Below, in pieces: positions 2,845 to 26,622 of a DNA stretch of 32,000 nucleotides (within the stretch, counting starts at the first letter, position 1; the number at the start of each line of letters is the position of its first letter). The stretch covers positions 107,049 through 139,048 of the forward strand of contig JACCFC020000005.1 of the NCBI GenBank assembly GCA_020830965.2. Direction: 5' to 3'. Made by a program: the position numbers and the translations under genes. This DNA is from Neisseriaceae bacterium TC5R-5. Its GTDB lineage: Bacteria; Pseudomonadota; Gammaproteobacteria; Burkholderiales; Chromobacteriaceae. The notes under the pieces are model-generated. The model was not told the DNA's origin, did not search any database, and saw only the letters and a program-made list of their open reading frames with translations.

Positions 2845-3960
2845 ATGCGCACACTGGTGATATTGCTGTGCTGCCTTATCCTACCGGTCAGCGCAGCCGA
2901 CTGCGATAACTGGCCACAATGGCAAGCCTATCGCCAACACTTTATTAGCAGCGATGGCCGTGTCATTGATCGCAGCAGCCACCACTCGCTGACCACGTCC
3001 GAAGGTCAAAGTTACGGCCTGTTTTTTGCGCTGGTGGCCAATGACCAGCCAGCTTTTGCGCAGCTATTGGCCTGGACGCAGAATAATCTGGCAGAAGGCG
3101 ATCTGAGCACCCATCTGCCAGCCTGGGCCTGGGGCCAGCAGCCCGACGGCCGCTGGGGCGTGCTGGACAAAAACAGTGCCGCCGATGCCGACCTGTGGAT
3201 CGCCTACAGCCTGCTGGAAGCTGGCCGCCTATGGCAGCAGCCGCGCTATCTGACCCAAGGCAAACAGCTGGCTGCCCGTATCTGGCAAGAAGAAACCGCC
3301 AGCTTGCCGGGCCTGGGCCGCATGCTCTTACCCGCCCCCTATGGTTTTCAGCCGGAAGCCGCACGCTGGCGACTCAACCCCAGCTATTTACCCTTACAAA
3401 TTCTGGCCCGCCTGGCACAACTGCTGCCGGAAAACGATTGGCACAGCCTGCACCACAATACCCAACGGCTGCTGCAAGAGAGCGCGCCACATGGCTTTGC
3501 CCCGGACTGGGTAGTCTATACCGCCAAGCAAGGTTTTACGCCCGATAGCCAAACCCAGGCCAGCGGCAGTTACGACGCCATCCGCGTCTACCTCTGGGCC
3601 GGCATGTTATCGGCACAAGCCGATGGCCAGGCCGCGCTGCTGCACACCCTGGCGCCGATGACACAATGGCTCAGCCAGCATGACGCCCCACCACGCCAGA
3701 TCGATACCCGCAGCGGCCAGATGGAGGGAGATGGGCCGGTAGGCTTCTCGGCCGCACTGCTCCCCTTGCTGCAAAGCAGTGGTGCGCAAGCAGCGCTGCA
3801 ACAACAATTAGCCCGCCTGAACGCCCTGCCACTCAGCCAGCGACCGGACAACTACTACGATCATGTCTTAACGCTGTTCGGGCTAGGCTGGCAGCAAGGC
3901 CGCTATCGCTTCGGCAGCCAAGGCCAATTACAAACCCGCTGGGACAGTGCATGTCGTTGA
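2845..3960 (+). CDS. bcsZ: Periplasmic endo-1,4-beta-glucanase BcsZ (glycoside hydrolase family 8)
   Basis: It has a signal peptide (MRTLVILLCCLILPVSAADC) and the GH8-type block TTSEGQSYGLFFALVAND. The start abuts the bcsB stop (TAAATG), and its position in the operon is canonical. Confidence 0.9.
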   Translation: MRTLVILLCCLILPVSAADCDNWPQWQAYRQHFISSDGRVIDRSSHHSLTTSEGQSYGLFFALVANDQPAFAQLLAWTQNNLAEGDLSTHLPAWAWGQQPDGRWGVLDKNSAADADLWIAYSLLEAGRLWQQPRYLTQGKQLAARIWQEETASLPGLGRMLLPAPYGFQPEAARWRLNPSYLPLQILARLAQLLPENDWHSLHHNTQRLLQESAPHGFAPDWVVYTAKQGFTPDSQTQASGSYDAIRVYLWAGMLSAQADGQAALLHTLAPMTQWLSQHDAPPRQIDTRSGQMEGDGPVGFSAALLPLLQSSGAQAALQQQLARLNALPLSQRPDNYYDHVLTLFGLGWQQGRYRFGSQGQLQTRWDSACR

Positions 3961-6900
3961 TACGCACCCTCCTGACCTTCATCCTGCTTTTTTTAGCGCT
4001 GGCGGCCGCCGCCACCGGTAGCACCAGCGACCCGGCGCAAGCCCTGCTGGCACAGGCCAGACTCTGGCAATCCTTAAACCACCGTGACGAAGCACAACAA
4101 GCACTCGCCAAACTACACCAACTGGCTGCGCTCAGCCCGGCAGTACAAGCCGAAGCCTTGGCCTTGCAAGCGATGCTGCAACTGCAAAACCAGCAGCTAC
4201 AGCCAGCCAGCCAGACACTCAAGCAACTCAAACAGCAATACCCGCACTCTGCTGTCATCCATAAGGTCGAACAGCTGCAACGCGTCCTCGGCAGCCAGCA
4301 TGCGCAACTGCTGCAAGCACGGGCCCTCGCCCGCAGCGGCAAAACCGATGCTGCCATCGCCGTACTGGACGCGCTGTATCAAGGCCCGCCACCAGATGGC
4401 GAATTAGCACTGGAATACTGGTCACTGGTCGTCCGCAGCCCCAATAAGGGCTGGCAACGCGCTCACGCCGGTTTGAGTAAACTGCAACAAGCCACACCGG
4501 ACAACCGTAGCTATCAACTGGCGCTGGCCGACCTCTATCTCTACCAACCGCCAGCCCCACCCACCATCTTTGCCACCCTCCAAACCCTGACCCTCTACCC
4601 GGACAGCCGTAAATCCGCACTGAAAACCTGGCGCCGCGCCCTGCTACAACTTGAACAGCACGCCCAGCCAAACTGGTTTAACGCCTATCTGCGCGAAGTA
4701 CCGGATGACAGCAGCGTCGCACAGCATCGCGATCGACTGGCCGCCCAAGCCGCCAGGCAACGCGCCCTATTGGCTGACCCCGGCTATCGCGCCCGGCTAG
4801 CAGCCAGCAAACAACTGGATAACAATCAGCTGGCTGCGGCCGAACGCAGCCTGGAACAGGCACAAGTCCACTATGGTCAAGAAGCCGATGTCCTGGGCAA
4901 CTGGGGACGACTGCGTGCAAAGCAGGGACAGTATCAACAAGCCATCGCCTTCTATCGTCAGGCACAGCGCCAAGACAAACAAAATAGGCAATGGTCACAA
5001 GCTCTGGTCGACAGCTATTTCGAGCAACAGCTGGCGCAAGCCGCACGCGCAATTGAGGCCAACAACTTTAAGCGAGCCGAACAGCATCTGCAGCAGGCAG
5101 CCAAACTGCGCCCCCACGCCATTGAGCTCACCCTCAGTCGTGCGCAACTGGCCGAGGCCCAGCAGCAACTCGCCCTCGCCTGGCGTGACTATCACGACGT
5201 GCTGACACGCGCCCCGGCTAATGCTCAGGCGCTAGCCGGGCTGATCCGCCTTTACCTGCAACAAGGAGAGGCCAGCCAAGCGAGCGCCTATCTGGACAAC
5301 CTGCCCAAGCAGCAACGCCATCTGCTAGGCAGCGCCTACCCTGCCGCCCAAGCCAGTATCGCCCGCCAGCAAGCGGAGCAATTACTAGCCAGCGGACAGC
5401 GCGCACTCGCCATCAAGGCACTGCAACAAGCCGTCGCCCTACAAGCTCAAGACCCATGGAACCGACTGGCCTTAGCCAAAGCCTGGCTAGCAGACGGGCA
5501 GGCGGCCAAAGGCGAAGCGGTATTGCAAGCCCTGCTAAACACCCCGCAAGCGGATAGCAACACCCGCTACGCCTACGCCTTATTCCAAAGCAGCCAAGAG
5601 CAAAACCAAGCCGCACTGCTGACGCTGGAACACATCCCCACTACCGAACGCAGCGATAGCATGGCGCAACTGCAGCGCCAACTCTGGCTGCGTGAAACCC
5701 TGCGTCTGGCCAGCGCCGAAAATGCCCATGGCCAGCCCCAAGCCGCGCAACAAAGATTGCAACACGCCAGCCAACGCTTTGCCGACGACCCGGCACAGCT
5801 CAGCGAACTGGCCAGCGGCTGGCTGCAACTGGGGCCACGCGAACCGGCACTGGCACTGATGCAAAAGGTTTATCAACAACACCCGGACAAGGAATACACG
5901 CTGCGCTACGCCAGATTGCTGCTGGACGCACAACAAAGCACGGCACTGCTTGCGCTGCTGGCTCAATGGGATCACCAGCAAGCCGCTCCCCTCACCCCCG
6001 CCCAACAAAGCGAACTCACCGCCATCTACAGCGGTCTCGCCCTGCTCAAGGCCAGCGCGGCACGCCAGCAAGGTCAGGACGAGCAAGCGCGCGAACTGCT
6101 CGACCAGGCGCTGATCGCCGATCCGCAACAAGCTGACTTGCTGCGCGAACGCGCCGAACTCGACATCAGCCAACAACAATGGCAGCGCGCCGAACAAAGA
6201 CTGCAACTGGCACTGCAATACAAGCCCCAGGATGACGAAGCCAAGCTGCTGTTACTAGATAGCTATCGCCAAACCGGTCAATGGGCCGCACGTCAGCAAC
6301 TGGCACAAACCCTGCTCAATGAACGGCCACTGCGCAGCCTGGATTATCGGCTACGGGTATTAAACCGGCTCAGCGAGCAGGACGACCCCCAACTCAGCAC
6401 ACAAGCCCTCGATACCATGCAGCAACAAGGAGAAAGCAGCCCTGCACTATTCGGCCTGCAAGCCGAACGCGCACTCAAGCAACAACAGGCCGATAGCGCG
6501 CTGAAGCATTATCGCCACAGCTTTAGCCCCACCAGCGGCCTCAGCCAACAACCGCTCGTCAGCAATAGCATGCTACCCGGCCAGGCCGCTCTCGCCAGCG
6601 AAGTACCGGCAATAGGCCAGCCCCCCAACAGTCAGACCGCCTTACAAACCGTCAGCAGCGAAAGCCAACAACTGGCTGATCTGCACGCAAGCTATGCCGC
6701 ACTGCTGGATAAACGCACCGGCACGGTGCAAGGTGGGCTGGATTGGAGTTTTCGCGGCGGCAGTACTGGCACACCGGGGCAATCACAGTTGGCGATGTGG
6801 CAAGCCCCGCTACTGCTGCAAATACCCGGCCCGGCCAATGGGCAATACTTCTTGCGCAGCGACTACACCAGCCTCGACGCCAAAAGCCTGCAAAGCAGCG

Positions 6901-7850
6901 ACAGTTACGCGATACAACGCTTTGGCGCCATCCTGGCTTGCCGCGACCAGGTCGCCTGTGCCAAACAGGCCGGACAGCAGCAAAGCCATGGTCAAAGCAT
7001 CGGTGCCGGTTTTGCTAACGATGACTGGCGCGTTGATCTTGGCCACACACCGCTGGCCTTTCCCGTCAGCTACTTCGTCGGGGGCCTCAAACACTTCGGC
7101 AAAATCAATCAACTCAACTACAGCATCGACATCGCCCAACGCCCGCTCACCAGCTCACTGCTCAGCTACGCCGGCACCCGCGACCCCTACACCGGCGAGA
7201 CCTGGGGCGGCGTCCGCAGTCGCAGCCTCAGCACAGGGCTAGGCTATGATCAGGGTGAAGCGCTAGGGGTGTGGAGTAATCTTGGCTATCAGCAGCTGAC
7301 AGGCGAAAACGTCGCCCGCAATCGTCGCCTGAGTATGATGGGAGGGGTGTACTGGCGCATACACAAAGACGACACCCACCGCCTGACCGTGGGTATCAAC
7401 AATATCAACTTCTGGTACCAGAAAAACCTCAGTGAATTTACGCTGGGGCAAGGCGGCTACTACAGCCCGCAAGCCTATCACTCGCTATCCGTCCCCATCA
7501 GCTACGCGCTGCGCAATGAACGCTGGAGCACGCTATTCCGCTTCGCCCCCTCGCTCTCCTACGCGCGGGAAAACAGCACCCCGTTCTACCCGACCCGGCC
7601 CGATCTGCAACAGCAAACCGGTAACCCGCAATTCAGCAGCAGTAGCGGCCCCGGCAAAGGCGTATCCGCCAGCACCGCTTTTGAATATCAGCTTAATCCC
7701 CGGCTGGTGCTGGGCGGCCAACTGGAATACCAATACTCCCCCCTCTACCAACCCGGCCATGCCCAGCTCTATCTACGCTACAGCCTGGCCCCGGCGGCAC
7801 AAACGCTACCTTTCCCGGTAGAACCCCTCGTGCCCTATACGAGTTTTTAG
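3951..7850 (+). CDS. bcsC: Cellulose synthase outer-membrane/TPR subunit BcsC
   Basis: The product is 1299 aa with an N-terminal signal peptide and a long Ala/Gln/Leu-rich TPR-like region. The C-terminal ~350 aa show alternating aromatic beta-strand patterning ending in ...YTSF, typical of an OM barrel terminus. It overlaps the bcsZ end by 10 nt. Confidence 0.9.
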   Translation: MSLIRTLLTFILLFLALAAAATGSTSDPAQALLAQARLWQSLNHRDEAQQALAKLHQLAALSPAVQAEALALQAMLQLQNQQLQPASQTLKQLKQQYPHSAVIHKVEQLQRVLGSQHAQLLQARALARSGKTDAAIAVLDALYQGPPPDGELALEYWSLVVRSPNKGWQRAHAGLSKLQQATPDNRSYQLALADLYLYQPPAPPTIFATLQTLTLYPDSRKSALKTWRRALLQLEQHAQPNWFNAYLREVPDDSSVAQHRDRLAAQAARQRALLADPGYRARLAASKQLDNNQLAAAERSLEQAQVHYGQEADVLGNWGRLRAKQGQYQQAIAFYRQAQRQDKQNRQWSQALVDSYFEQQLAQAARAIEANNFKRAEQHLQQAAKLRPHAIELTLSRAQLAEAQQQLALAWRDYHDVLTRAPANAQALAGLIRLYLQQGEASQASAYLDNLPKQQRHLLGSAYPAAQASIARQQAEQLLASGQRALAIKALQQAVALQAQDPWNRLALAKAWLADGQAAKGEAVLQALLNTPQADSNTRYAYALFQSSQEQNQAALLTLEHIPTTERSDSMAQLQRQLWLRETLRLASAENAHGQPQAAQQRLQHASQRFADDPAQLSELASGWLQLGPREPALALMQKVYQQHPDKEYTLRYARLLLDAQQSTALLALLAQWDHQQAAPLTPAQQSELTAIYSGLALLKASAARQQGQDEQARELLDQALIADPQQADLLRERAELDISQQQWQRAEQRLQLALQYKPQDDEAKLLLLDSYRQTGQWAARQQLAQTLLNERPLRSLDYRLRVLNRLSEQDDPQLSTQALDTMQQQGESSPALFGLQAERALKQQQADSALKHYRHSFSPTSGLSQQPLVSNSMLPGQAALASEVPAIGQPPNSQTALQTVSSESQQLADLHASYAALLDKRTGTVQGGLDWSFRGGSTGTPGQSQLAMWQAPLLLQIPGPANGQYFLRSDYTSLDAKSLQSSDSYAIQRFGAILACRDQVACAKQAGQQQSHGQSIGAGFANDDWRVDLGHTPLAFPVSYFVGGLKHFGKINQLNYSIDIAQRPLTSSLLSYAGTRDPYTGETWGGVRSRSLSTGLGYDQGEALGVWSNLGYQQLTGENVARNRRLSMMGGVYWRIHKDDTHRLTVGINNINFWYQKNLSEFTLGQGGYYSPQAYHSLSVPISYALRNERWSTLFRFAPSLSYARENSTPFYPTRPDLQQQTGNPQFSSSSGPGKGVSASTAFEYQLNPRLVLGGQLEYQYSPLYQPGHAQLYLRYSLAPAAQTLPFPVEPLVPYTSF

Positions 7851-7863
7851 GAAAGACCACATC

Positions 7864-8247
7864 ATGCTCAAGCCCTGCTGTCAGCTCCTTTTTACTCTAT
7901 TGCTGACCGCCTGCGCCCATCCCCCAGCCACCCCGGCACAACAAAGCCTGGCGCAAGCGCGGGCCGAATACTGGCGCTCCCCCTACCAACCGGCGGCCAT
8001 CAACCAACTAGCTCTACAACTGGTACAAGCTGGCGATAGCGATACCGCACGGCTGCTCTGGTACCGCGCCCTACGCATCGCCCCTGATCGCGACGATATC
8101 CGCGCCAATCTGCTGCTATTAGAAGCAGGCACTCGCCAACTAGACCAGAGTGCCACCGATCCGCTCAGCCCAGCCAGCAGCAAGTCAAGCAAGCCACCCC
8201 CACCGCTACCGGCCCCCTGGCAACGCCTGCCACAGCACAGCCCTTAA
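7864..8247 (+). CDS. Small putative lipoprotein with one TPR-like repeat and a proline-rich tail, co-oriented 13 nt after bcsC
   Basis: A good SD (AGGAAAG) lies 7-13 nt upstream of the ATG. The lipobox is LLLTAC at the end of a hydrophobic leader. A TPR-like stretch (AINQLALQLVQAGDSDTARLLWYRALRIAPD) and a tail PASSKSSKPPPPLPAPW follow. I recognise no family. Confidence 0.55.
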   Translation: MLKPCCQLLFTLLLTACAHPPATPAQQSLAQARAEYWRSPYQPAAINQLALQLVQAGDSDTARLLWYRALRIAPDRDDIRANLLLLEAGTRQLDQSATDPLSPASSKSSKPPPPLPAPWQRLPQHSP

Positions 8248-8318
8248 GAGCCTGATCCAGCGTTGCGCCTTGGCTCAGTTGCTCTTCGAGCTTTTGTTAG
8301 CCGCTCTTAGCGACACCA
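8238..8318 (+). repeat. Correia-like MITE, copy A (short variant: 39-bp internal deletion and missing AACAAAAC core of the left TIR)
   Basis: CCTGATCCAGCGTTGCGCC/TTGGCTCAGTTGCTCTTCGAGCTTTTGTTAGCCGCTCTTAGCGAC aligns with copy D (15741-15862), except that D positions 15781-15819 are absent. That missing segment is flanked by GCGCC direct repeats in D. Boundaries are approximate. Confidence 0.7.
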
Positions 8319-8362
8319 GCGAAGAACCTGTGCCAATATCAATTTGGCATTAATTTAAAGCA

Positions 8363-8706
8363 ATGATAGGATCACAAGCAAAATTCACAACCAAAGAAAA
8401 GCAATGCGATACTGGCGTCGAAAAAGCCTTATATGACTGGGTCGCCCCCAGCTTGTACTACGTTTTTTTACACCGGTTCCACCGGTTTGGACGGCATATG
8501 ACCCGGATGATATTTGGGCAGAAGTACAAGAGAAGCAGCGCAAAGAACGGGAAGCCGGCTGCTGCCGACAGTGCTTCATCCGTTTGCGCCGCTGGCGCAT
8601 CAAAAGAGTGCTGCGCTCGGAATGGGCCAAAATTAAAGAAGTATTGAAGAAAGCCCCGTTTGAGTACCAGGGCAAGCTCCCAGAAGATTATCCATTTGAT
8701 GACTAG
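8363..8706 (+). other. Candidate small gene split over two frames: ATG 8363 in frame 2, then a protein-like open frame 1 from 8437 to TAG 8704-8706. It may be a frameshifted pseudogene, a homopolymer error or a -1 frameshift gene
   Basis: Frame 1 is open for 89 codons with no ATG (…TPVPPVWTAYDPDDIWAEVQEKQRKEREAGCCRQCFIRLRRWRIKRVLRSEWAKIKEVLKKAPFEYQGKLPEDYPFDD*). The two frames meet at a T7 run, zero-frame codons GTT TTT TTA at 8462-8470. I recognise no family and there is no clear SD at 8363. Confidence 0.25.
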
Positions 8707-10367
8707 TGCTGACAGCCATTATTGGCGGCAACGATGCCGCCATTGGGCGAGGTATAACCCAAGCAACCGAGTATGGTATCGAATAGTTGTACATGCCGTA
8801 AGGTTTTACCAGCACGCTGCTGAGCCGCTAACTGTTCAAAACCATGGCGCTGCTGCGGGCTAGCTAGGTACTTATCGGAAGCCCATACCATGATGGGCAC
8901 GCGAAACTGTTCAGCAGGGGCCAACTGACGTGGTGTGCCATGCAGATGCTCATTTTCAGCAATCGATTCGCCATGGTCAGCCGCATAAAACACGATCGCC
9001 TTCTTATCCCGCAACTGATCAATCACCTTGCTGATAAACGCATCGGTATACAGCACGCTATTATCGTAAGCGTTAATCAATTGTGCCTTGCTACAGAAGC
9101 TATCCACGCTCAGACACTCCGGTTGATAACGAGCATAAGCTGGTGGATAGCGTTGTGAATATTGATAATGCGAACCTTTGGTATGCAGAATCACCAGATG
9201 TTTGCCTTGCGGGTAGCGTGCTAAGGAAGCCGCCACCTCCTCCAGCAATAGCATGTCATCAACCGGTTTGCCCTCATTACGCCCCTCCGCAGTAATCAAC
9301 TCGCGAAATGCATAATTATCTACCTCGGTTTTATTATAGAACCACACCTCGCTCTGCATCGCGAACAATTCCGAGCTAAAACCCATCTGCTTCAACACCG
9401 CAAAAACATTTTGCTCTTTCAAGGTGCGTTGCGGATTGTCTGCTGCTCCGCCTTCACGCACAAACATACAACGCAGCGATAATTTGGTAGAGGTGTCGCA
9501 AGACTCCCCGCGAAACACCAGTAGATTGCTCTCTCGTGACAACTTGGGGGTGGTATCCCGGGCATAGCCCAATAGGCCCAGATGATCCCAACGAGTGGTT
9601 TCACCGATGATAAAGACCATATAAGTGTCATTGATTCCCGCTGGTGAGACATAGCGAAAATGCTGCGCCGGGTCAAACAGCTTGCTCTGATTGTCGTATT
9701 CGTCGTAGCGGGTATAGGCAAACAAACCTAGTGCCGACAACCAATTAGCGGGCAGGTAAGCATGCACCACCCCACCACCATAGCTGGATAAATCGAGATT
9801 ACTACGTTGCGCCTGCTTACTATGCTCTTGATCCAACACCCGCAATGGTAGCCACACCAGCAACAAAGCCGCGAGCAAAAACAATAGCGACTTCAAACGC
9901 TGACCAGGCATTTTCAGCCGCTGCAGCAGTGTGTCACGCAACGGGCTTTGCCAAATACACAGCAAGGGCAACGCACTTAATAACACGGTCCACAGCACAA
10001 AATGCCATCCGATCACTTCGACAGACAAATCTATATCTGTCGTGATGACTGAAGCGATCACCCCGTAACCAATCACCACACCGAAAAAAGCGACGTAATA
10101 ACTGGCAGCAACGGAGGTCAGCAACAGCAGTGTGGCAGCAAAGCGATAAAACCACCGTCCGGCCAAAGAACACAGTTGCAGTAATAGGTAGGTAAACAGC
10201 ACAGCGGCCACGGCCTCCGCCAGCGTGGAGACAAGCTTGATCGCTAGCGGCTGCTGTAAAGATGTCAGCAAACGGCGATAAAAAACGGGAAGATTTAACA
10301 AAAGGCCAATATAGAGGCCCAACCATAAAGAGAGGTTTTTATGTAATAGTGATTTTATTTTATTCAT
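8703..10367 (-). CDS. eptB: Phosphoethanolamine transferase of the EptA/EptB family, closest by motif to EptB (Kdo-lipid A PEtN transferase)
   Basis: The product is 554 aa with an N-terminal multi-TM region (LYIGLLLNLPVFYRRL...) and a sulfatase-fold domain. Motifs are FIIGETTRWDHLGLLGYARDTTP, ESCDTSTKLSLRCMF, HTKGSHYQYSQRYP, YDNSVLYTD, YAADHGES and HLHGTP. These match my recollection of E. coli EptB better than EptA (GETSRAENF / SCGTATAVSVPCMF). Confidence 0.8.
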   Translation of the reverse strand: MNKIKSLLHKNLSLWLGLYIGLLLNLPVFYRRLLTSLQQPLAIKLVSTLAEAVAAVLFTYLLLQLCSLAGRWFYRFAATLLLLTSVAASYYVAFFGVVIGYGVIASVITTDIDLSVEVIGWHFVLWTVLLSALPLLCIWQSPLRDTLLQRLKMPGQRLKSLLFLLAALLLVWLPLRVLDQEHSKQAQRSNLDLSSYGGGVVHAYLPANWLSALGLFAYTRYDEYDNQSKLFDPAQHFRYVSPAGINDTYMVFIIGETTRWDHLGLLGYARDTTPKLSRESNLLVFRGESCDTSTKLSLRCMFVREGGAADNPQRTLKEQNVFAVLKQMGFSSELFAMQSEVWFYNKTEVDNYAFRELITAEGRNEGKPVDDMLLLEEVAASLARYPQGKHLVILHTKGSHYQYSQRYPPAYARYQPECLSVDSFCSKAQLINAYDNSVLYTDAFISKVIDQLRDKKAIVFYAADHGESIAENEHLHGTPRQLAPAEQFRVPIMVWASDKYLASPQQRHGFEQLAAQQRAGKTLRHVQLFDTILGCLGYTSPNGGIVAANNGCQH

Positions 10368-10413
10368 CTGATGTGATGGTTATGGCTGGCCTTGACAGAT
10401 AGAGAGCTTTAAC

Positions 10414-10435
10414 AAAATGCCGCTCCCGGCATTTT
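10414..10435 (-). promoter_or_regulatory. Terminator-like hairpin in the eptB 5' leader region
   Basis: AAAATGCCG-CTCC-CGGCATTTT forms a 9-bp stem with a 4-nt loop. On the - strand the stem runs into TTTTGTT, and it lies ~45 nt upstream of the eptB ATG (10367). Confidence 0.3.
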
Positions 10436-10599
10436 TGCAGCATTGCCCAAGTAGATTTCGGGCCGGCCCCTAAGTTAAGAAAAGCAGACCGCAGAGTCTT
10501 TCCACCCCCACCATACAATCCACTGGCGCCCGAGTTTAACGCAAAAAAACACAGGAAATACAATATTACCGTGCGCAAAACTGACAAATTTGCCCAACA

Positions 10600-10680
10600 G
10601 CTTAAAGCCGCTAACAAAACCTCGAACAGCCGCTAAGTCAAGGTGTACCGACACAGACAGTACCAGTGATACTGCGCGGC
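10600..10680 (-). repeat. Correia-like MITE, copy B (truncated: one TIR plus ~75 bp, other end missing)
   Basis: CTTAAAGCCGCTAACAAAACCTCGAACAGC...GACAGTACCAGTGATAC aligns with the left half of copy C. Similarity is lost after ~10680. Confidence 0.65.
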
Positions 10681-10767
10681 ATAAAACGAGTGTCAGCACT
10701 TATTTACTCCACAACTGCTTGACAGCAGCAAACGTACTGGACGAAGCTACTGACAGCTTTACCTTAC

Positions 10768-10898
10768 CTTTAAGTGCCGCTAACAAAACCTCGAAGAGCA
10801 CCTGCGCCAAGACGCGCCGACGCAGATCCTACCAGTGGCACGGCAAGAAGGTACGACGCTGGATCAGGGGGTTTGTTAGCGGCTCTCACTCATAAGGA
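10768..10898 (-). mobile_element. Correia-like MITE, copy C (full length, inverted relative to copy D)
   Basis: The TIRs GCCGCTAACAAAACC (10778-10792) and GGGGGTTTGTTAGCGGC (10867-10883) are reverse complements. The reverse complement of C aligns with copy D at roughly 80-85% identity by eye over ~113 bp. The element ends about 10 nt before the toxin ATG. Confidence 0.8.
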
Positions 10899-10906
10899 AA
10901 ACAGAC

Positions 10907-11704
10907 ATGAGTCAAGCCAGTCAGGACGAAGGCATTAGTATTGTTATGAGCGCGCCGCAACTGGCCGCAGCATTGGCCCGGAAAACCCTTAGCCAAGGCG
11001 ATATCCTGAGTAATCGCTTTTGGGGAAGTTTAGAACTAGCTGGCGGCATTCTGGAGATGGTAGGCGCTGGCGCGTTATGTATCGCACCCGAACCCACTGG
11101 CGCAACTAAAGTAGGATGCGTCGCGATTGGTGCGCATGGCGCCGATACCATCGCCACTGGCGCACGTAAAGTCTGGACCGGCGAAGATAGCAGAAGCCTG
11201 ACACAGCAAGGCGTCATCAAGCTGGCCGAAACAATGAAGGCAAACCCTAGCCAAGCTGGGAATATCGCCATAGCCGTAGACATGTCTGTACCAATCGGAC
11301 TCGCCAGCATGGTAAACGCCGCACGTGTCAGCAGCATAACTTTGGGACGGTTTAGAATTTCAGAACACGAGGCAAAAAGCCTTGGCGGAAGAGGTGGGCA
11401 TACCCTTGCCAAGCATGTCGGACAAACCAAAGAAGAGATGTTAGCAAGACTTGAAAAAGAAAAAGACCTATTTAAAGTCTCATCATTTTATAGTAGAAAA
11501 TTAGCAGAATGGGGAGTATCTGAAGTCCTTCTAAAAAGATCATCAGAAATTAGCTCATGGGCTAAATCATCCTCTACTCGCCCTTTAGAGATAGAAGAGG
11601 CGGTTGGAAAAGTAGTAGGACATGGAATAAACAGAGGCAAAGATAATTTTAAGGAAATATACAATGGCATGCCTTATTTTGTCTTAACGGCATACCCGAA
11701 GTAA
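10907..11704 (+). CDS. Stand-alone polymorphic-toxin-like protein: unassigned glycine-rich hydrophobic N-terminal region plus C-terminal bacterial RNase-A-like (CdiA-CT type) nuclease domain
   Basis: SD AAGGAAA lies 7-13 nt upstream of the ATG. The C-terminal signature GGHTLAKHVGQTKEEMLARL (nt 11393-11452) and terminal LTAYPK (T-x-Y) match my recollection of the CdiA-CT RNase A-like family (H-T-[IL]-x-[KR]-H-V-G-K/Q-T; catalytic His and C-terminal Thr/Tyr). I see no signal peptide, PAAR, Rhs/YD, FHA, LXG or MIX features. It is followed 8 nt later by a CdiI-like ORF. Confidence 0.7.
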   Translation: MSQASQDEGISIVMSAPQLAAALARKTLSQGDILSNRFWGSLELAGGILEMVGAGALCIAPEPTGATKVGCVAIGAHGADTIATGARKVWTGEDSRSLTQQGVIKLAETMKANPSQAGNIAIAVDMSVPIGLASMVNAARVSSITLGRFRISEHEAKSLGGRGGHTLAKHVGQTKEEMLARLEKEKDLFKVSSFYSRKLAEWGVSEVLLKRSSEISSWAKSSSTRPLEIEEAVGKVVGHGINRGKDNFKEIYNGMPYFVLTAYPK

Positions 11705-11712
11705 GGAAAAGT

Positions 11713-12009
11713 ATGGAAGATACTCGAAAGCTATACCCGAATTTACACCTTCTTTTTGGCGCTTACCTAATGCAAGACTGGACTCTATGGGGAAGCACAA
11801 TAGAAGATGTAATACTTCGCTACAAAAAGGACATGAATCAAGAAGAGTGCCAAGCAGCCATTCATGAAATAGATGAATTCATTAACAGGCACCCTAATGA
11901 TTTAAATGAATACTATGAAGAGCTATTTGGAGAGGAAATTTCAATAGAAGCATTTGGTTATTCGCCATCTTCTTTTCTTGAATATTTAAAATATACTATC
12001 TCAACATAA
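11713..12009 (+). CDS. CdiI-like immunity protein (contact-dependent growth inhibition immunity family)
   Basis: This is a 98-aa acidic protein. The N-terminal block YPNLHLLFGAYLMQDW resembles the Y-P-x-L-x-x-F-x-G-x-Y-F-H-Q-D-W hallmark of a CdiI family. It has SD GGAAAAG upstream, starts 8 nt after the toxin stop, shares the toxin 3' half's AT-rich composition, and is followed by a terminator. Confidence 0.65.
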   Translation: MEDTRKLYPNLHLLFGAYLMQDWTLWGSTIEDVILRYKKDMNQEECQAAIHEIDEFINRHPNDLNEYYEELFGEEISIEAFGYSPSSFLEYLKYTIST

Positions 12010-12016
12010 ATTTCAG

Positions 12017-12052
12017 AAGGCCAAGACCTAAAAACCTTGGCCTTTATTTGTT
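12017..12052 (+). terminator. Rho-independent terminator after the toxin/immunity pair
   Basis: AAGGCCAAG (12017-12025) pairs with CTTGGCCTT (12036-12044) around a 10-nt loop, followed by TATTTGTTAGTTTATTTATT. Confidence 0.75.
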
Positions 12053-12166
12053 AGTTTATTTATTATTCTGCTAGTTAGTTTGCTTGAATCGCCAACCCTC
12101 ACTTCTGCCCTATTTTCGGAAAAAAATTCTCACAGCCACCGCTAAACCCGCACAGTAAAGCCGCCC

Positions 12167-13777
12167 TTATTGCAGCCCCTCATAGCCTGCCCATTCACCC
12201 CCACTTTGCCGCCATAAATACTGCTTGCCGCGCTGCATAACAATATTATCTGCATCCTCGGCCACAAACGGCGTATTTGGCAGTTTCTGGCTATAGCTAG
12301 TGGGCTGATAATCCGCGCCAAACGGGCTGCGATTAAGCATTTGCGCCAGAATGTCGCTGATGGCCAGATAGCTTACTGGCTGGTCTAAGCGCACTGGCAG
12401 CGGCTTGCCCTGGCCACCAATCACCTTAATAGCCGCCGGCACAATGGTAATCGCCGGGGTGGGAATATCACGCAAGCCGGCAAACTGCTGCTTGTCACCA
12501 TGCAAAGCCGCGCCATGCTCCGGTACCAGTAATAGAATCACCTTGCGCTGACTGCGTTCTAAATCATCAATGAATAGTCCTAAATCGCTAAACAACTTAT
12601 GCGCCCGCGCTTTATAGCTGTCCAGGCTGTTGAGATTGGGTTGATCAAGCAGGCGATTACCATCGTGCAGGCTGATGGTATTGTAGTAAGCGGCAATATG
12701 ACTGCTTTGATCCTGCTGCCGCTGCTCCAGCCAATGCTTGAGCATGCCGTAATCGTCGTAAATGGGACTATCGTCAAAGCCGCGCTGGGCTACAGTTTGA
12801 CCCTGTTGACTCAAGAGCGGTAAAGACAGCCGCCCTTCCTTGCGCAACAGCGACAGAAAATCATCAAAGTGACCATCGTGGTTGAGTAATAGCTCATTTT
12901 TAAAACCGAGCCGTGCCAGGTTTTCAAACAAGAAGCACTGGCTATTGCCGGGTTCATAAAGCCCTTTATGGCTAGTTTGCCCGCAACTGGCCCGCAATAC
13001 CCGTAGTGCCGCAGGGCCACTATAAGGAGTGGCGGTATTAAAGTGAGTAAAGACAAAATCAAAACGACTCAATAAAGGCGAGTTATCCAGACCCACCTCG
13101 CGCAAATCGTCCCAGGCCAGCGAGCAGACATGAATCAGCAATACATCAAAAGCGCTGTCAGCCGCAGGCGGTAGAAACTGCACTTTGCGTTGGCTTTCGC
13201 TGCGGTAAAAAGCTTGCAGTTCGGCATCCGGAGTTTGCTGGATAGCTGGTACCCGCTCAGGCTGAGGCGCCGCAGCCACGATAAGCGGTTTGCTTTCCGA
13301 TTGTAGCCATTGCTGTCCAGCAGTCACTAATAGCGCGATGATAACCAGGCTGCTGACCCGCAGGTAGCGATTGAGCAACACATAGCCCAGTACTAGTAAA
13401 GCGCCTGCCAGTAGCGACCGGGCTGACAGCAGACGGCCAAGCAACTCCAGCCAATAAGCGAAACTAAAATCGCGCAGGCTAGCCAGTTGGCTAAGCATGG
13501 GCAGCAAAGACGGCAGCCAGGAATCGTAATACAACAGAACTAATGCCAACAGGCTGGCGACAAGAGTGCGCAGGCGCATTTTGCGCGGCCCATACACCGG
13601 TATCAGCAGTAATAGTGCAAAAGCCAGGTTGAGCCCAATATGCAGACCCAGACTACCCTGCCAGTACAACACCAGCTTGGCGCAGAAATAGAGACTCCAC
13701 CAAGCTAAGCCCTGACTATGCGGGCGTGAGTCAGTTGGCACCCAATGTAAAGCGGGATCAGTGTTTGATTTTGGCAT
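12167..13777 (-). CDS. bcsG: Cellulose phosphoethanolamine transferase BcsG
   Basis: The product is 536 aa with an N-terminal TM region (GLAWWSLYFCAKLVLYWQG...LNLAFALLLLIP) like E. coli BcsG and an alkaline-phosphatase-fold domain. The block DVLLIHVCSLAWDDL has its candidate catalytic Ser codon at 13121-13123. It follows bcsE-bcsF. Confidence 0.85.
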   Translation of the reverse strand: MPKSNTDPALHWVPTDSRPHSQGLAWWSLYFCAKLVLYWQGSLGLHIGLNLAFALLLLIPVYGPRKMRLRTLVASLLALVLLYYDSWLPSLLPMLSQLASLRDFSFAYWLELLGRLLSARSLLAGALLVLGYVLLNRYLRVSSLVIIALLVTAGQQWLQSESKPLIVAAAPQPERVPAIQQTPDAELQAFYRSESQRKVQFLPPAADSAFDVLLIHVCSLAWDDLREVGLDNSPLLSRFDFVFTHFNTATPYSGPAALRVLRASCGQTSHKGLYEPGNSQCFLFENLARLGFKNELLLNHDGHFDDFLSLLRKEGRLSLPLLSQQGQTVAQRGFDDSPIYDDYGMLKHWLEQRQQDQSSHIAAYYNTISLHDGNRLLDQPNLNSLDSYKARAHKLFSDLGLFIDDLERSQRKVILLLVPEHGAALHGDKQQFAGLRDIPTPAITIVPAAIKVIGGQGKPLPVRLDQPVSYLAISDILAQMLNRSPFGADYQPTSYSQKLPNTPFVAEDADNIVMQRGKQYLWRQSGGEWAGYEGLQ

Positions 13778-17145: not shown

Positions 17146-17424
17146 CTAGTGATGAATATCTAAAGTTAAATCACCACGCTCCTGGGCCACCGTTTCGAGA
17201 ATTTCCAGCACCGTGGCATAAATATCAGTGCCCATGGCCGCACGCGACTCAGCCGTTTCGCGCCAGACAATTTCAAACGGCCCCATCACCTCATTGCTTA
17301 AGCAATCATACAAAGCATCCAGATTACGACCAAAATGAGCAGGAAAACTCAACTGGCGACTGAGCTCATCGAACAACTGCTCCAGGCTTTTGATGTGATG
17401 CAATTCACAAACCATTACTGACAT
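17146..17424 (-). CDS. Barstar-family ribonuclease inhibitor
   Basis: This is a 92-aa protein with the barstar-like block LSFPAHFGRNLDALYDCLS (compare FGRNLDALWDCL). It overlaps the stop of the upstream RNase gene by 10 nt. Confidence 0.8.
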   Translation of the reverse strand: MSVMVCELHHIKSLEQLFDELSRQLSFPAHFGRNLDALYDCLSNEVMGPFEIVWRETAESRAAMGTDIYATVLEILETVAQERGDLTLDIHH

Positions 17425-17870
17425 GCTGGTACCTTGATAAAGTTCTGATAATGATCAACGGTCAGATACACCTGCTTACTCGGGCTATAGATCAGGCGGT
17501 AAGCGCCACGTTTTTTTCCGTTATAGCTCAAGTCCGCTTCCTGCCACTGCCCATATGGTAAGCGCCGCTCATAGTTGCCAAACCTATCTCCACCGATAGA
17601 CTTGCCTTTTAATGCCGGAATCACCCACAAACTACGCCCGGGCTGCCAGCCTGCCACCTTGGCCTGCTGCTTAGTGACAAACTGCCCCGGCAATTTGCCG
17701 CTACGTTGCAGGCTCAGCAACACACCAGCCAGCTCTGTCTGATCAAGCGAAGCGGCCGTCTCCTGTTTGAGCTGAGTAGCCACCACAGCACAAGCTGGCA
17801 AGTTAGCGGCATGGATATAACCCAGGCTGAAATAGCTACCTAGGGCAAGCAATACAGTAAGAAGTTTCAT
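17415..17870 (-). CDS. Secreted barnase-family (N1/T1/microbial) guanyl-specific ribonuclease
   Basis: It has a signal peptide (MKLLTVLLALGSYFSLGYIHA). Barnase-like blocks are LPGQFVTKQQAKVAGW, GKSIGGDRFGNYERRLP, WQEADLSY, RLIYS and YLTVDHYQNFIKV, with positions equivalent to the catalytic Glu and His retained. Confidence 0.8.
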   Translation of the reverse strand: MKLLTVLLALGSYFSLGYIHAANLPACAVVATQLKQETAASLDQTELAGVLLSLQRSGKLPGQFVTKQQAKVAGWQPGRSLWVIPALKGKSIGGDRFGNYERRLPYGQWQEADLSYNGKKRGAYRLIYSPSKQVYLTVDHYQNFIKVPACQ

Positions 17871-24725: not shown

Positions 24726-25610
24726 CTAATTATTTTTAGTATTGCTATGACTAGCCAAAATTTCCTGATGCATGGTTTCCAGATTAGGGTCCAGAATCAC
24801 CCTGCCTAATGGCTTAGAGACCATCAGGATAGTGTCCAGCACTTGCTCTCGTCCCTGCAAGTTGGCCGCTTCATCCAATAAAGTCACCCCCAAGCTGGTT
24901 AAATTATCTCCCCCGGCACCAGCGCGACGCTCCGCCACGGTCATAAGACCCGGCAAAGCCTGACTTACTTCACGGGTAGTAAATATTTTGGCCAGTTCAG
25001 CTTCGCTCAGTTGCGACCAGAAGCCGTCAGTACATAACAGTATGGAATCACCGGTTGCTAATGGCTGCTGCTTGCCAATATCAATATCCGGGTCAAAACT
25101 GGAGCCTAGGCAATTATAAATTTTATTGCGTTCCGGATGCGTTTTGGCCCCCTCTTCAGTCAGTTGCCCCTGCTCAATCAAACGCTGCACATGAGAATGA
25201 TCACGTGAACGCAGGCGCACGCCTTCAGTCGCACTTAGTAGATACAGGCGGGAGTCTCCTACATGACACCAGTACAAAGTGTGATTTTGAATGATGGCAG
25301 CGACAACCGTCGTGCTGGGTACCTCGGGCAAACGATGATCGGTTGCATAATCCAGAATCAACTGGTGAGCTGAGCTAATTGCACTGACCAAAAAACGGTT
25401 TGGGTGGCTCAACACCGCAACAGCCTGCTGATAAAATAACTCTCCCAAGACATCAATCGTGATCTGTGCAGCTACCTCTCCGCAAAGATGGCCACCCATC
25501 CCATCGGCTACCACCAACAAAACGGCTTCGCTGGTATGAGCGAGCAGTAAGCGATCCTGATTATAAGAGCGTCCCCCAGTACGACTTTCCTGAAAAACAG
25601 ATAATTTCAT
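24726..25610 (-). CDS. PP2C-family Ser/Thr protein phosphatase
   Basis: The product is 294 aa with NQDR, LLVVADGMGGH, HVGDSRLY and LLCTDGFW metal-binding blocks. It starts 13 nt after the kinase gene stop. Confidence 0.85.
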   Translation of the reverse strand: MKLSVFQESRTGGRSYNQDRLLLAHTSEAVLLVVADGMGGHLCGEVAAQITIDVLGELFYQQAVAVLSHPNRFLVSAISSAHQLILDYATDHRLPEVPSTTVVAAIIQNHTLYWCHVGDSRLYLLSATEGVRLRSRDHSHVQRLIEQGQLTEEGAKTHPERNKIYNCLGSSFDPDIDIGKQQPLATGDSILLCTDGFWSQLSEAELAKIFTTREVSQALPGLMTVAERRAGAGGDNLTSLGVTLLDEAANLQGREQVLDTILMVSKPLGRVILDPNLETMHQEILASHSNTKNN

Positions 25611-25623
25611 ACCTTGGCCCCCA

Positions 25624-26622
25624 TCATGACCGCCTACTCATTAAATTTTTGAACCAAGCAAAGCATTTATTCCCAACCCCCGCAGCAAGAACCGGCTCGG
25701 TCGGCACACTATAGTTAGCCTCCAGCAAACGCTTCTGTACCTCCAGCACCGTCGCCGGGCGCTCATCCGGCAGGATCGCCAGACATTGATCTGTCAAGGC
25801 CAACAGCTCTGGCGAATATAGATGGTTAAATAGCTTGCTTGCTGGTGTCAGCTCATCATGCACTTTGCGCTGTTTGGATGCCTGCGGCGTTGCCCCGCCC
25901 ATACAGACATACAAACAGGCACCAATCGCATAGATATCAGTCCACGGCCCCAAAGCACCTTCTTTTTCATATTGCTCGGGTGCAGCAAACCCTGGTGTGT
26001 ACATGGCAGCAAAATGCTGATTTTCTCGTGACAGCGTTTGTCTAGCTGCGCCGAAATCCAGTAATAGAGGAACGCCATTACGTCGCAGATAAATATTGGC
26101 GGGCTTAATATCAAGATGTAACAAGCGGTGGAGATGTACCTCACGCAGACCGGCTAACAGAGTAGCAAACCACTTACGAATCAGCTTTTCCTGCATGCGC
26201 CCACCCAAATTCCCCAGCTCGCGCACCAGCGAGCGACCAGCCGCATATTCCATCACCATATAAACAGTTTGATTGGCACGAAAAAAATTACTGACCCGCA
26301 CGACAGAAGGATGTGCAATACCAGACAATACGCGCCCCTCCTCAAAGAAACATTTCAATCCTAAATTAAATGCTTCCATATCTATTTCGTTACTCACCAT
26401 TACTTGGCCATCTTGTGTTCTGGAAGCTAAATTGCGTGGCAAATACTCTTTAATTGCAAATTTTTGCCCCTGCTCATTGACAGCTAAATACACGATACTG
26501 AAGCCGCCAAGCGATAGTTGGCGTACGATAGTGTACTCAGCCAAATGGTAATCGGTAGGCAAAGCAGTCTGATCGCTGGATTGAGTCATGGGGTCGCTAT
26601 TGTTATAGTGTTCGTCGGACAT
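25624..26622 (-). CDS. Soluble Hanks-type Ser/Thr protein kinase (non-RD variant)
   Basis: The product is 332 aa. Motifs are the glycine loop LGGFSIVY, FAIKEY (VAIK Lys), catalytic loop HLDIKPANIYL (Leu in place of the RD Arg), DFGAA and FAAPEQ. I see no TM or sensor domain. Confidence 0.85.
   Translation of the reverse strand: MSDEHYNNSDPMTQSSDQTALPTDYHLAEYTIVRQLSLGGFSIVYLAVNEQGQKFAIKEYLPRNLASRTQDGQVMVSNEIDMEAFNLGLKCFFEEGRVLSGIAHPSVVRVSNFFRANQTVYMVMEYAAGRSLVRELGNLGGRMQEKLIRKWFATLLAGLREVHLHRLLHLDIKPANIYLRRNGVPLLLDFGAARQTLSRENQHFAAMYTPGFAAPEQYEKEGALGPWTDIYAIGACLYVCMGGATPQASKQRKVHDELTPASKLFNHLYSPELLALTDQCLAILPDERPATVLEVQKRLLEANYSVPTEPVLAAGVGNKCFAWFKNLMSRRS

Follow-up and report, generated by a model that had tools for sequence, protein, structure and literature searches.

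The two-gene cassette and its predicted products

In a 32-kb stretch of the genome of Neisseriaceae bacterium TC5R-5 (the window, in whose positions all coordinates below are given), two genes lie between eptB and bcsG that a reading made from the sequence alone (hereafter the sequence-only reading) had proposed to encode a stand-alone RNase-A-like toxin and a CdiI-like immunity protein. The siting of the pair was borne out by protein family matches on both sides, namely eptB on the left (8703-10367, minus strand; NF008593, 943.6 bits) and bcsG on the right (12167-13777, minus strand; TIGR03368, 628 bits), the product of the latter being a phosphoethanolamine transferase like that of eptB. Across the window the gene order is bcsA-3'/bcsB/bcsZ/bcsC on the plus strand, eptB on the minus strand, the toxin and immunity genes on the plus strand, bcsG/bcsF/bcsE on the minus strand, and then housekeeping genes.

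The toxin gene (10907-11704, plus strand) starts with ATG and encodes a basic protein of 265 aa (28.1 kDa; pI 9.2) that is 100% identical to the database entry HZU77_004895, a hypothetical protein of Neisseriaceae bacterium TC5R-5. Inspection of the sequence placed a Shine-Dalgarno (SD) element, AAGGA, 8 nt 5' of this ATG (10894-10898, plus strand). After a spacer of 8 nt from the toxin stop codon, the immunity gene (11713-12009, plus strand), which also starts with ATG, encodes an acidic protein of 98 aa (pI 4.4; 19 D+E versus 7 K+R). The sequence-only reading had placed both ORFs exactly, and the motifs that it quoted (GGHTLAKHVGQTKEEML, LTAYPK and YPNLHLLFGAYLMQDW) are present. The strong terminator that it had noted corresponds to a terminator-like hairpin with a U-rich tail, found by RNA folding 3' of the immunity stop codon (12016-12055, plus strand), in which a perfect 10-bp stem (12016-12025 paired with 12036-12045) encloses a 10-nt loop and is followed by UUUAUUUGUU; none of 200 shuffled sequences was equally stable (dG -14.9 kcal/mol; z = -3.6). 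A simple terminator scan missed the hairpin at 12016-12045, apparently since its loop limit was 8 nt.

The C-terminal part of the toxin (residues 164-264; 11396-11698, plus strand) matched the Pfam family PF18431 (RNAse_A_bac) over the entire profile (positions 1-113 of 113) with an E-value of 5.7e-20 and a score of 72.7 bits, well above the gathering cut-off of 27, and in a sequence search it matched the CdiA-CT toxin of Yersinia kristensenii (5e3e_B; E 2.3e-6). When the AlphaFold2 (AF2) model of this domain, in which the per-residue confidence score (pLDDT) is ~72-82 for residues 170-240 and lower at the C-terminal strand, was compared with known structures using Foldseek, 5e3e_B and 5e3e_D were the sole confident matches (probability 1.00; TM-score 0.74 and 0.69, respectively, on the target), indicating that the toxin C-terminus is, as modeled, an RNase A fold and agreeing with the assignment made by the sequence-only reading. 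Mutagenesis of CdiA-CT(Ykris) has defined His175, Arg186, Thr276 and Tyr278 as the important residues (Batot et al., 2017; PMC5435912), and these align to H170, R181, T261 and Y263 of the window protein, the predicted catalytic residues. Among 38 homologues, R181 and T261 are invariant, H170 is conserved in at least 90%, and position 263 is occupied by Y, F or H, a variation likewise reported at the position of Tyr278 for the RNase group (PMC5435912). Since the experimentally defined His175 aligns with H170, which lies within LAKH-VGQT, the predicted catalytic histidine is H170 and not H165, the residue that the sequence-only reading had chosen; H165 is the histidine of a GGH motif that is invariant in the family. 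Ribocin RbcN of Pseudomonas aeruginosa (PMC13189344) is another stand-alone bacterial protein with an RNase-A fold and has an analogous H/K/T/Y site, but it carries a Sec signal peptide, lacks an immunity gene and targets eukaryotic rRNA helix 69, on account of which we rejected it as a relative; it is 15% identical to CdiA-CT(Ykris).

The 98-aa protein matched PF18593 (CdiI_2) with an E-value of 3.6e-17 and 63.4 bits (cut-off 26.7), in keeping with its proposed identity as a CdiI-type protein. Its sequence alone gave no match to CdiI(Ykris), 5e3e_A, and a profile built from 22 immunity proteins of the family did (E 2.9e-7). Because the toxin matches 5e3e_B and the immunity profile matches 5e3e_A, both genes of the cassette are homologous to the members of one co-crystallized pair. 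By inspection and hydropathy, neither product has an evident signal peptide: the immunity protein appears soluble, and the N-terminus of the toxin is acidic (MSQASQDEG...) with no n-region.

The CdiA-CT/CdiI pair of Y. kristensenii ATCC 33638 (5e3e; PMC5435912) thus shares with the window cassette a homologous RNase, the same His/Arg/Thr/Tyr site and a downstream CdiI_2-type immunity gene. In that system, however, the RNase is the tip of a CdiA protein of >3000 aa that is exported by CdiB and carries VENN as well as a cytoplasm-entry domain of its own, whereas in the window protein it sits behind an unrelated 160-aa N-terminal module within a total of 265 aa, and there is no cdiB/cdiA. Neither VENN nor DPxG occurs in the toxin sequence. 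Scanning the window against Pfam (ORFs, i.e., open reading frames, from 150 aa upward and a few shorter ones) revealed no cdiA/cdiB, Rhs, VgrG, PAAR, Hcp, type VII secretion system or adaptor gene, as the sequence-only reading had stated for most of these, and no FHA-type exoprotein or Omp85 transporter among the ORFs scanned. Judged from these sequence features, the window toxin is related to a toxin domain of contact-dependent growth inhibition (CDI) but is not part of a CDI system.

The cassette is also divided by its base composition. In profiles of GC content and of GC content at third codon positions (GC3), a break falls at 11400-11410, exactly at the domain boundary of the toxin: 5' of this junction GC is 54% and GC3 is 51%, compared with 38% and 29% in the RNase part and 35% and 29% in the immunity gene. 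The GC3 of eptB and bcsG is 55-56%. Because GC3 breaks at the domain boundary, the cassette would be an instance of the displacement of a C-terminal toxin together with its immunity gene, as in polymorphic toxin systems; the junction is likely the recombination point at which a low-GC RNase/immunity module was swapped onto a resident N-terminal module.

The toxin family and its N-terminal module

We scanned reference genomes (one genome per species) with a 10-sequence alignment as the query and found 215 encoded relatives in Burkholderiales, Enterobacterales and other groups; the closest match to the window protein is 60% identical. The analysis of loci covered the best ~80 of these 215 relatives and is therefore biased toward close, RNase-bearing ones; the RNase domain was present in 71 of the 78 proteins from the 79 best loci. 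Homologues that span the whole protein (~270 aa; coverage 97-100%, identity 40-57%) are encoded in Cupriavidus, Paraburkholderia, Achromobacter, Pantoea and other genera, and the true start of each falls shortly ahead of a conserved ...(I/V)V(L/M)S..QLAA.L segment. This confirmed the short, stand-alone format of the toxin and contradicted the notion that its homologues are only 3' fragments of larger genes. N-terminal 'heads' of up to 829 aa, which would have made some homologues fusions, were rejected as artefacts of calling in-frame upstream ORFs in high-GC DNA. A downstream ORF is present at 76 family loci, and at 58 of them it encodes a ~97-aa homologue of the immunity protein, at a distance of -29 to +197 nt and mostly within ~20 nt.

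Genomes often carry many copies, with six or more in both Paraburkholderia ferrariae and P. sejongensis and three in Pantoea sp. BAV 3049. TC5R-5 itself has three: the window copy, a full paralogue (P0002; HZU77_013340) and a truncated copy (P0055; HZU77_015790). P0002 is 69% identical to the window protein in the N-domain and 47% in the RNase domain, and P0055 is a 136-aa fragment from which ~59 residues at the N-terminal end and the greater part of the RNase domain are missing. P0055 was among the ten matches listed when an index of 5.8 billion proteins was searched with a profile of the core of the N-terminal module. Clustering of the genes next to family loci gave no conserved partner; the largest clusters, read by eye, were ABC transporter, LysR, SDR, aldehyde dehydrogenase, MFS, RND and P4 primase genes, and the loci are mostly orphans amid unrelated housekeeping genes. 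Because homologues sit in such unrelated contexts, the position of the window cassette within a cellulose locus appears incidental. In an Enterobacteriaceae contig (L084, 93-10281; P0041) the cassette is carried on a P4-like element (AlpA, Phage_ASH, D5 primase) with a DUF3289/DUF943 pair of the toxin/immunity type directly 3' of it, suggesting from the gene content that this element may be a mobile effector hotspot. In Erwinia tracheiphila (L052, 9998-11158) a single 386-aa ORF fuses toxin and immunity sequences, the RNase C-terminus having been lost and the frame running on into the immunity part, and 1.5 kb upstream there is a fragment of Hcp; the cassette is probably in decay.

The N-terminal module consists of two parts. 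The first is the conserved segment EGISIVMSAPQLAAAL (residues 8-23; 10928-10975, plus strand), which follows the family consensus ..(I/V)V(L/M)S..QLAA.L and in which Q18 and A21 are invariant and L19, A20 and L23 are at least 90% conserved. The second is a core (residues ~33-146; 11003-11344, plus strand) that is helical, Gly/Ala-rich (28% Gly+Ala) and marked by a near-invariant L..PEPT..TK.G....HG.D motif, with two borderline-hydrophobic segments (~42-60 and ~120-138); in the AF2 model its helices (30-58, 65-91, 98-109 and 114-145) form long hairpins. An exhaustive search with residues 1-163 returned 430 cluster representatives at E≤1e-3. Stand-alone proteins carry the module at their very N-terminal end, while larger proteins contain the core only (query ~33-146). 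In P0158, P0190 and many metagenomic fragments it comes behind the DPxG that closes an Rhs core, and in P0192 it comes behind an eCIS_core domain, a marker of cargo of extracellular contractile injection systems (eCIS). The residue 8-23 segment is thus confined to the stand-alone forms, as Rhs- and eCIS-embedded relatives align only from query residue ~32-36, and we infer that it is a candidate secretion or loading signal.

Each embedded core is followed by a tail of 85-200 aa, and ~30 tail types were found among 38 proteins; the recognizable domains after the module are RNase A, TreTu_C, Ntox50 and a ParB_N-like domain. The tails of P0157, P0170, P0185, P0189 and P0190 have in common a C-terminal domain of ~170-195 aa with GH(T/N)AVG ... 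NCS(T) motifs that belongs to no Pfam family and, going by these motifs, is a possible Cys/His hydrolase. The sole family that recurred in matches to the module itself was PF13988 (DUF4225): 26 of 47 core-module sequences matched it at E≤1 (best 8.9e-8), and P0158 exceeded its cut-off (26.9 versus 25.9 bits) over exactly the stretch that aligns with the window protein (E 2.4e-13). We therefore regard the module as remotely related to DUF4225, i.e., as DUF4225-related rather than as a demonstrable member. Three members of the module family match a holin family weakly, and a profile of the module searched against PDB sequences gave nothing significant.

Linkage to type VI secretion and alternative explanations

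Some members of the family are linked to structural genes of a type VI secretion system (T6SS). In Neorhizobium huautlense (L081) the order, confirmed by Pfam matches, is VipB ... ClpV - Hcp - family toxin - immunity - VgrG - DUF2169 - PAAR-like/Ntox15 - Tdi1-like, and in two Photorhabdus species (L076 and L082) hcp overlaps the start of the toxin gene. Two other loci (L070/L052) have a VipA gene or an Hcp fragment in their vicinity. A ClpV-like match at L027 was discounted as probably a housekeeping ClpB. The search for T6SS neighbors suggested by the sequence-only reading thus established linkage for the family, in 5 of 79 loci, most being orphans, and not for the window locus itself. It also narrowed the delivery route, which that reading had left entirely open, since members stand between hcp and vgrG or directly after hcp and their N-terminal module is DUF4225-related. 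In Photorhabdus, 4-6 paralogues of CdiI_2 are arrayed 3' of the hcp-toxin pair (L076, 10810-12395; L082, 10856-12918), which by their sequence look like orphan immunity stockpiles, and a 965-aa TcC/Rhs-like gene lies ~1.7 kb beyond the array.

These findings place the window cassette in a group with a published label. Batot et al. (2017; PMC5435912) already named this RNase group as putative T6SS effectors of Burkholderiales and Enterobacteriaceae (e.g., WP_051477485.1 of Photorhabdus temperata), presumably prompted by the hcp adjacency in Photorhabdus. The taxonomic spread, short format and adjacent immunity gene are all alike, and the window cassette, being matched by the description of the group, is most simply a member of it in a Neisseriales host. 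It follows that the cassette is not an undescribed format, as the sequence-only reading had supposed, and that the remaining interest is in the uncharacterized N-terminal module. In the searchable literature we found the 2017 group mentioned and no experimental characterization of it.

Related effectors are consistent with a T6SS assignment. DUF4225 effectors are delivered by the T6SS, act on the periplasm or membrane and are typically encoded just after hcp (DUF4225-18764 of V. parahaemolyticus; PMC9765294); in Pantoea agglomerans, the DUF4225 proteins Pse9a/b were found in the T6SS1 secretome and Pse9d is encoded beside hcp (preprint 10.64898/2026.08.01.741415). They resemble the window family in their recurrent place right after hcp and in consisting mostly of orphan, multi-copy cassettes. 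In those effectors, however, DUF4225 forms the C-terminal warhead, and its partner is a small immunity protein with multiple transmembrane (TM) segments, whereas in the window toxin the related module is N-terminal, a nuclease lies behind it, and only a soluble nuclease inhibitor is encoded. Orphan location is normal for T6SS cargo, as seen for the PIX effectors of P. agglomerans (Pse3/Pse4; Carobbi et al., preprint 10.1101/2023.07.16.549128), which are likewise orphan and polymorphic, with a delivery domain of ~140 aa at the N-terminus, a variable C-terminal toxin (including one called 'CdiA-CT-like') and an immunity gene within 25 bp. PIX effectors differ in being reported only in Enterobacterales, never beside T6SS genes and with other toxin partners, while the window module is common among Burkholderiales and in some loci comes after hcp; this comparison draws on the published description of PIX. 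Tde1 of Agrobacterium tumefaciens follows a similar T6SS cargo logic at a similar size (~278 aa) with a C-terminal nuclease, and its N-terminal Gly-rich region permeabilizes the inner membrane and is needed both for loading and for entry of the nuclease (Ali et al., 2023; PMC10240207), with Tdi1 neutralizing the nuclease only (PMC10240207). Tde1 has GxxxG zipper repeats, an Ntox15 DNase and a DUF4123 adaptor (Tap1) with VgrG1, in contrast to the window family with its PEPT-centered helical hairpin, its RNase and no adaptor gene, members of which follow hcp where they are linked; our searches detected no sequence homology between Tde1/Tdi1 and the window proteins.

Taken together, we interpret the cassette as an intact orphan effector-immunity pair of a polymorphic antibacterial toxin family, most likely cargo of a T6SS and probably Hcp-associated, and we put the probability of this interpretation at about 60%. 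A transcript would start in the intergenic region between eptB and the toxin gene, run through both genes and stop at the hairpin. In the producing cell the toxin would be held inactive by its immunity protein and loaded onto the T6SS by means of the segment at residues ~8-23, which is specific to stand-alone forms, probably together with Hcp. Firing of the T6SS would deliver the toxin into the periplasm of a neighbor, where the DUF4225-related module (residues ~33-146) may, by analogy, insert into the inner membrane and help the RNase to pass from periplasm to cytoplasm. There the RNase domain, with H170, R181, T261 and Y263, would degrade cellular RNA, and in the producer and its kin a cytoplasmic CdiI_2 protein would protect by covering the active site. 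We infer the translocation role because the module always precedes a variable toxin, because it persists in Rhs C-terminal regions, where a docking signal is impossible, and because it is membrane-like and has the precedent of Tde1. A pyocin-type inner-membrane translocation domain (PMC9040868) was considered as well, and a Pfam scan of the toxin gave no Pyocin_S match.

Several observations weigh against this interpretation. T6SS genes were found within 10 kb in only 5 of the 79 family loci, the other 74 being orphans, in a screen that used few query types, with adaptors and classical PAAR left out, and none was present among the ORFs scanned in the 32-kb window. At 28 kDa, the protein is large for transport inside the Hcp lumen. 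The AF2 model of the N-terminal module has low confidence (pLDDT ~60), and Foldseek returned nothing significant for it against the PDB (LTC4 synthase and tetraspanins were among the non-significant matches). The relationship to DUF4225 is transitive, as the window protein gave no match to PF13988 even at E≤1 and 9 of 10 stand-alone relatives gave none either. The partner tails mostly belong to no family, ten representative non-RNase tails having given nothing significant against Pfam, and the translocation role itself rests on analogy.

The first alternative keeps T6SS delivery and changes the role of the N-terminal module, which would be a lytic toxin acting on the periplasm or membrane, with the RNase as a second, independent warhead and no translocation. 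DUF4225 alone lyses E. coli from the periplasm in the case of the V. parahaemolyticus effector (PMC9765294), T6SS effectors with two toxic domains are described (PMC12135965), and the DUF4225-related character of the module, with its borderline-hydrophobic helices and the three members weakly matching holins, would fit such a toxin. Nevertheless, DUF4225 effectors are accompanied by small multi-TM immunity proteins and the loci examined have only a soluble CdiI_2-type gene, and because only this gene follows the toxin, kin would be defenseless against an independent N-terminal toxin; moreover, the RNase would still need a route into the cytoplasm. We consider the double toxin unlikely.

A second alternative leaves the toxin as an interbacterial weapon and replaces the T6SS in TC5R-5 by another route, i.e., an eCIS or tailocin, outer-membrane vesicles, or release by bacteriocin-like lysis. 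The lack of a T6SS gene in the window and the predominance of orphan loci would be explained in this way, and P0192, a relative of the N-terminal module, does carry the eCIS_core cargo marker. The stand-alone protein, however, has no eCIS_core, receptor-binding domain, lysis gene or signal peptide, the sole secretion-system genes beside stand-alone members are those of the T6SS, and orphan siting is what T6SS cargo normally shows. We rate this route as slightly less likely still.

The sequence-only reading had also offered an intracellular toxin-antitoxin or abortive-infection module derived from a CDI nuclease. An operon of a toxin and its neutralizer with no secretion genes nearby has the expected layout, and one cassette of the family rides on a P4-like element. 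Against this, no PADLOC-DB family matched the toxin or the immunity protein at E≤1, some members lie in hcp/vgrG contexts, and the N-terminal module of 160 aa is common to Rhs- and eCIS-linked toxins and would be needless in an intracellular toxin; in addition, extra immunity arrays and multi-copy diversification with swapping of the C-terminal toxin are hallmarks of interbacterial conflict. We therefore view this option, which the analysis did not bear out, as improbable. Least credible of all is a non-functional, degraded 3' remnant of a cdiA or rhs gene, to which the foreign composition of the toxin/immunity half, the truncated copy P0055 in the same genome and the relatives of the module inside Rhs proteins could point, since the ORF is unbroken and has an SD, an ATG and a terminator of its own, the catalytic residues are kept, co-linear homologues (97-100% coverage) with the same N-terminal start motif exist in many genera, and no VENN/DPxG motif or upstream rhs/cdiA sequence is present.

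Surroundings of the cassette and implications

The layout of the bcs genes around the cassette is unusual in that the 3' ends of bcsABZC and bcsEFG face each other (3951-13777), with eptB and the cassette between them; in E. coli, by contrast, bcsABZC and bcsEFG are divergent neighbors. The sequence-only reading had noted that E. coli carries ldrD next to bcsG, and this was indeed seen in strain A30 (L083, 5193-7066), where bcsG is immediately followed, in convergent orientation, by ldrD, the gene of a type I toxin unrelated to the window pair. It is probably a coincidence that small toxin loci of unrelated kinds occupy the 3' end of bcsEFG in each of the two organisms.

The region 5' of the toxin gene (10570-10905) contains a direct repeat of 96 nt (10580-10675 and 10749-10844; 71% identical), within which the motif AGCCGCTAACAAAACC occurs twice (10606-10621 and 10775-10790), and the complement of this motif lies just 5' of the SD element (10869-10884). 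In the minimum free energy fold, CCUUA (10762-10766) pairs with the SD element of the toxin, with z-scores of only -1.9 and -1.35 and thus without statistical support; going by this folding model, the region could be an SD-sequestering leader with alternative partners. A search of 10300-12250 against Rfam gave no match.

Elsewhere in the window, a second, unrelated RNase pair lies at 17146-17870 on the minus strand. It comprises a 151-aa RNase of the barnase/T1 family (PF00545, E 2.5e-12) that bears a Sec-type signal peptide and, overlapping it, a 92-aa ORF with a barstar-like motif, FGRNLDALYDCLS, which we call a candidate inhibitor by eye only. At 24726-26622 (minus strand), a PP2C phosphatase (294 aa) adjoins a Ser/Thr protein kinase (332 aa). 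Pairs of this kind control T6SS firing in some bacteria, and nothing ties this one to a T6SS.

For TC5R-5, our interpretation means that two 'hypothetical' genes would form a putative weapon against other bacteria together with the matching antidote, in a strain with no fewer than three cassettes of this kind. The family to which they belong is large, multi-copy and fast-diversifying, and the one activity known for DUF4225, to which its N-terminal module is related, is that of a membrane/periplasm-acting toxin. With ~30 unclassified tail types in a small sample, this module could be used as a search marker for new toxin domains, and the 265-aa protein would be convenient for studying how T6SS nucleases are loaded and cross the inner membrane. 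A broader reading, which we put forward tentatively and regard as possible rather than probable, is that the core of the module (~115 aa) is a portable, self-contained inner-membrane translocation device that serves stand-alone T6SS effectors, Rhs C-terminal regions and eCIS cargo and brings a variety of cytoplasm-acting toxins through the inner membrane of the target. If this is true, the lytic activity of DUF4225 would be the same membrane insertion without a passenger, and the device would provide a general answer to how T6SS nucleases pass from the periplasm to the cytoplasm, with a 265-aa protein as the model.

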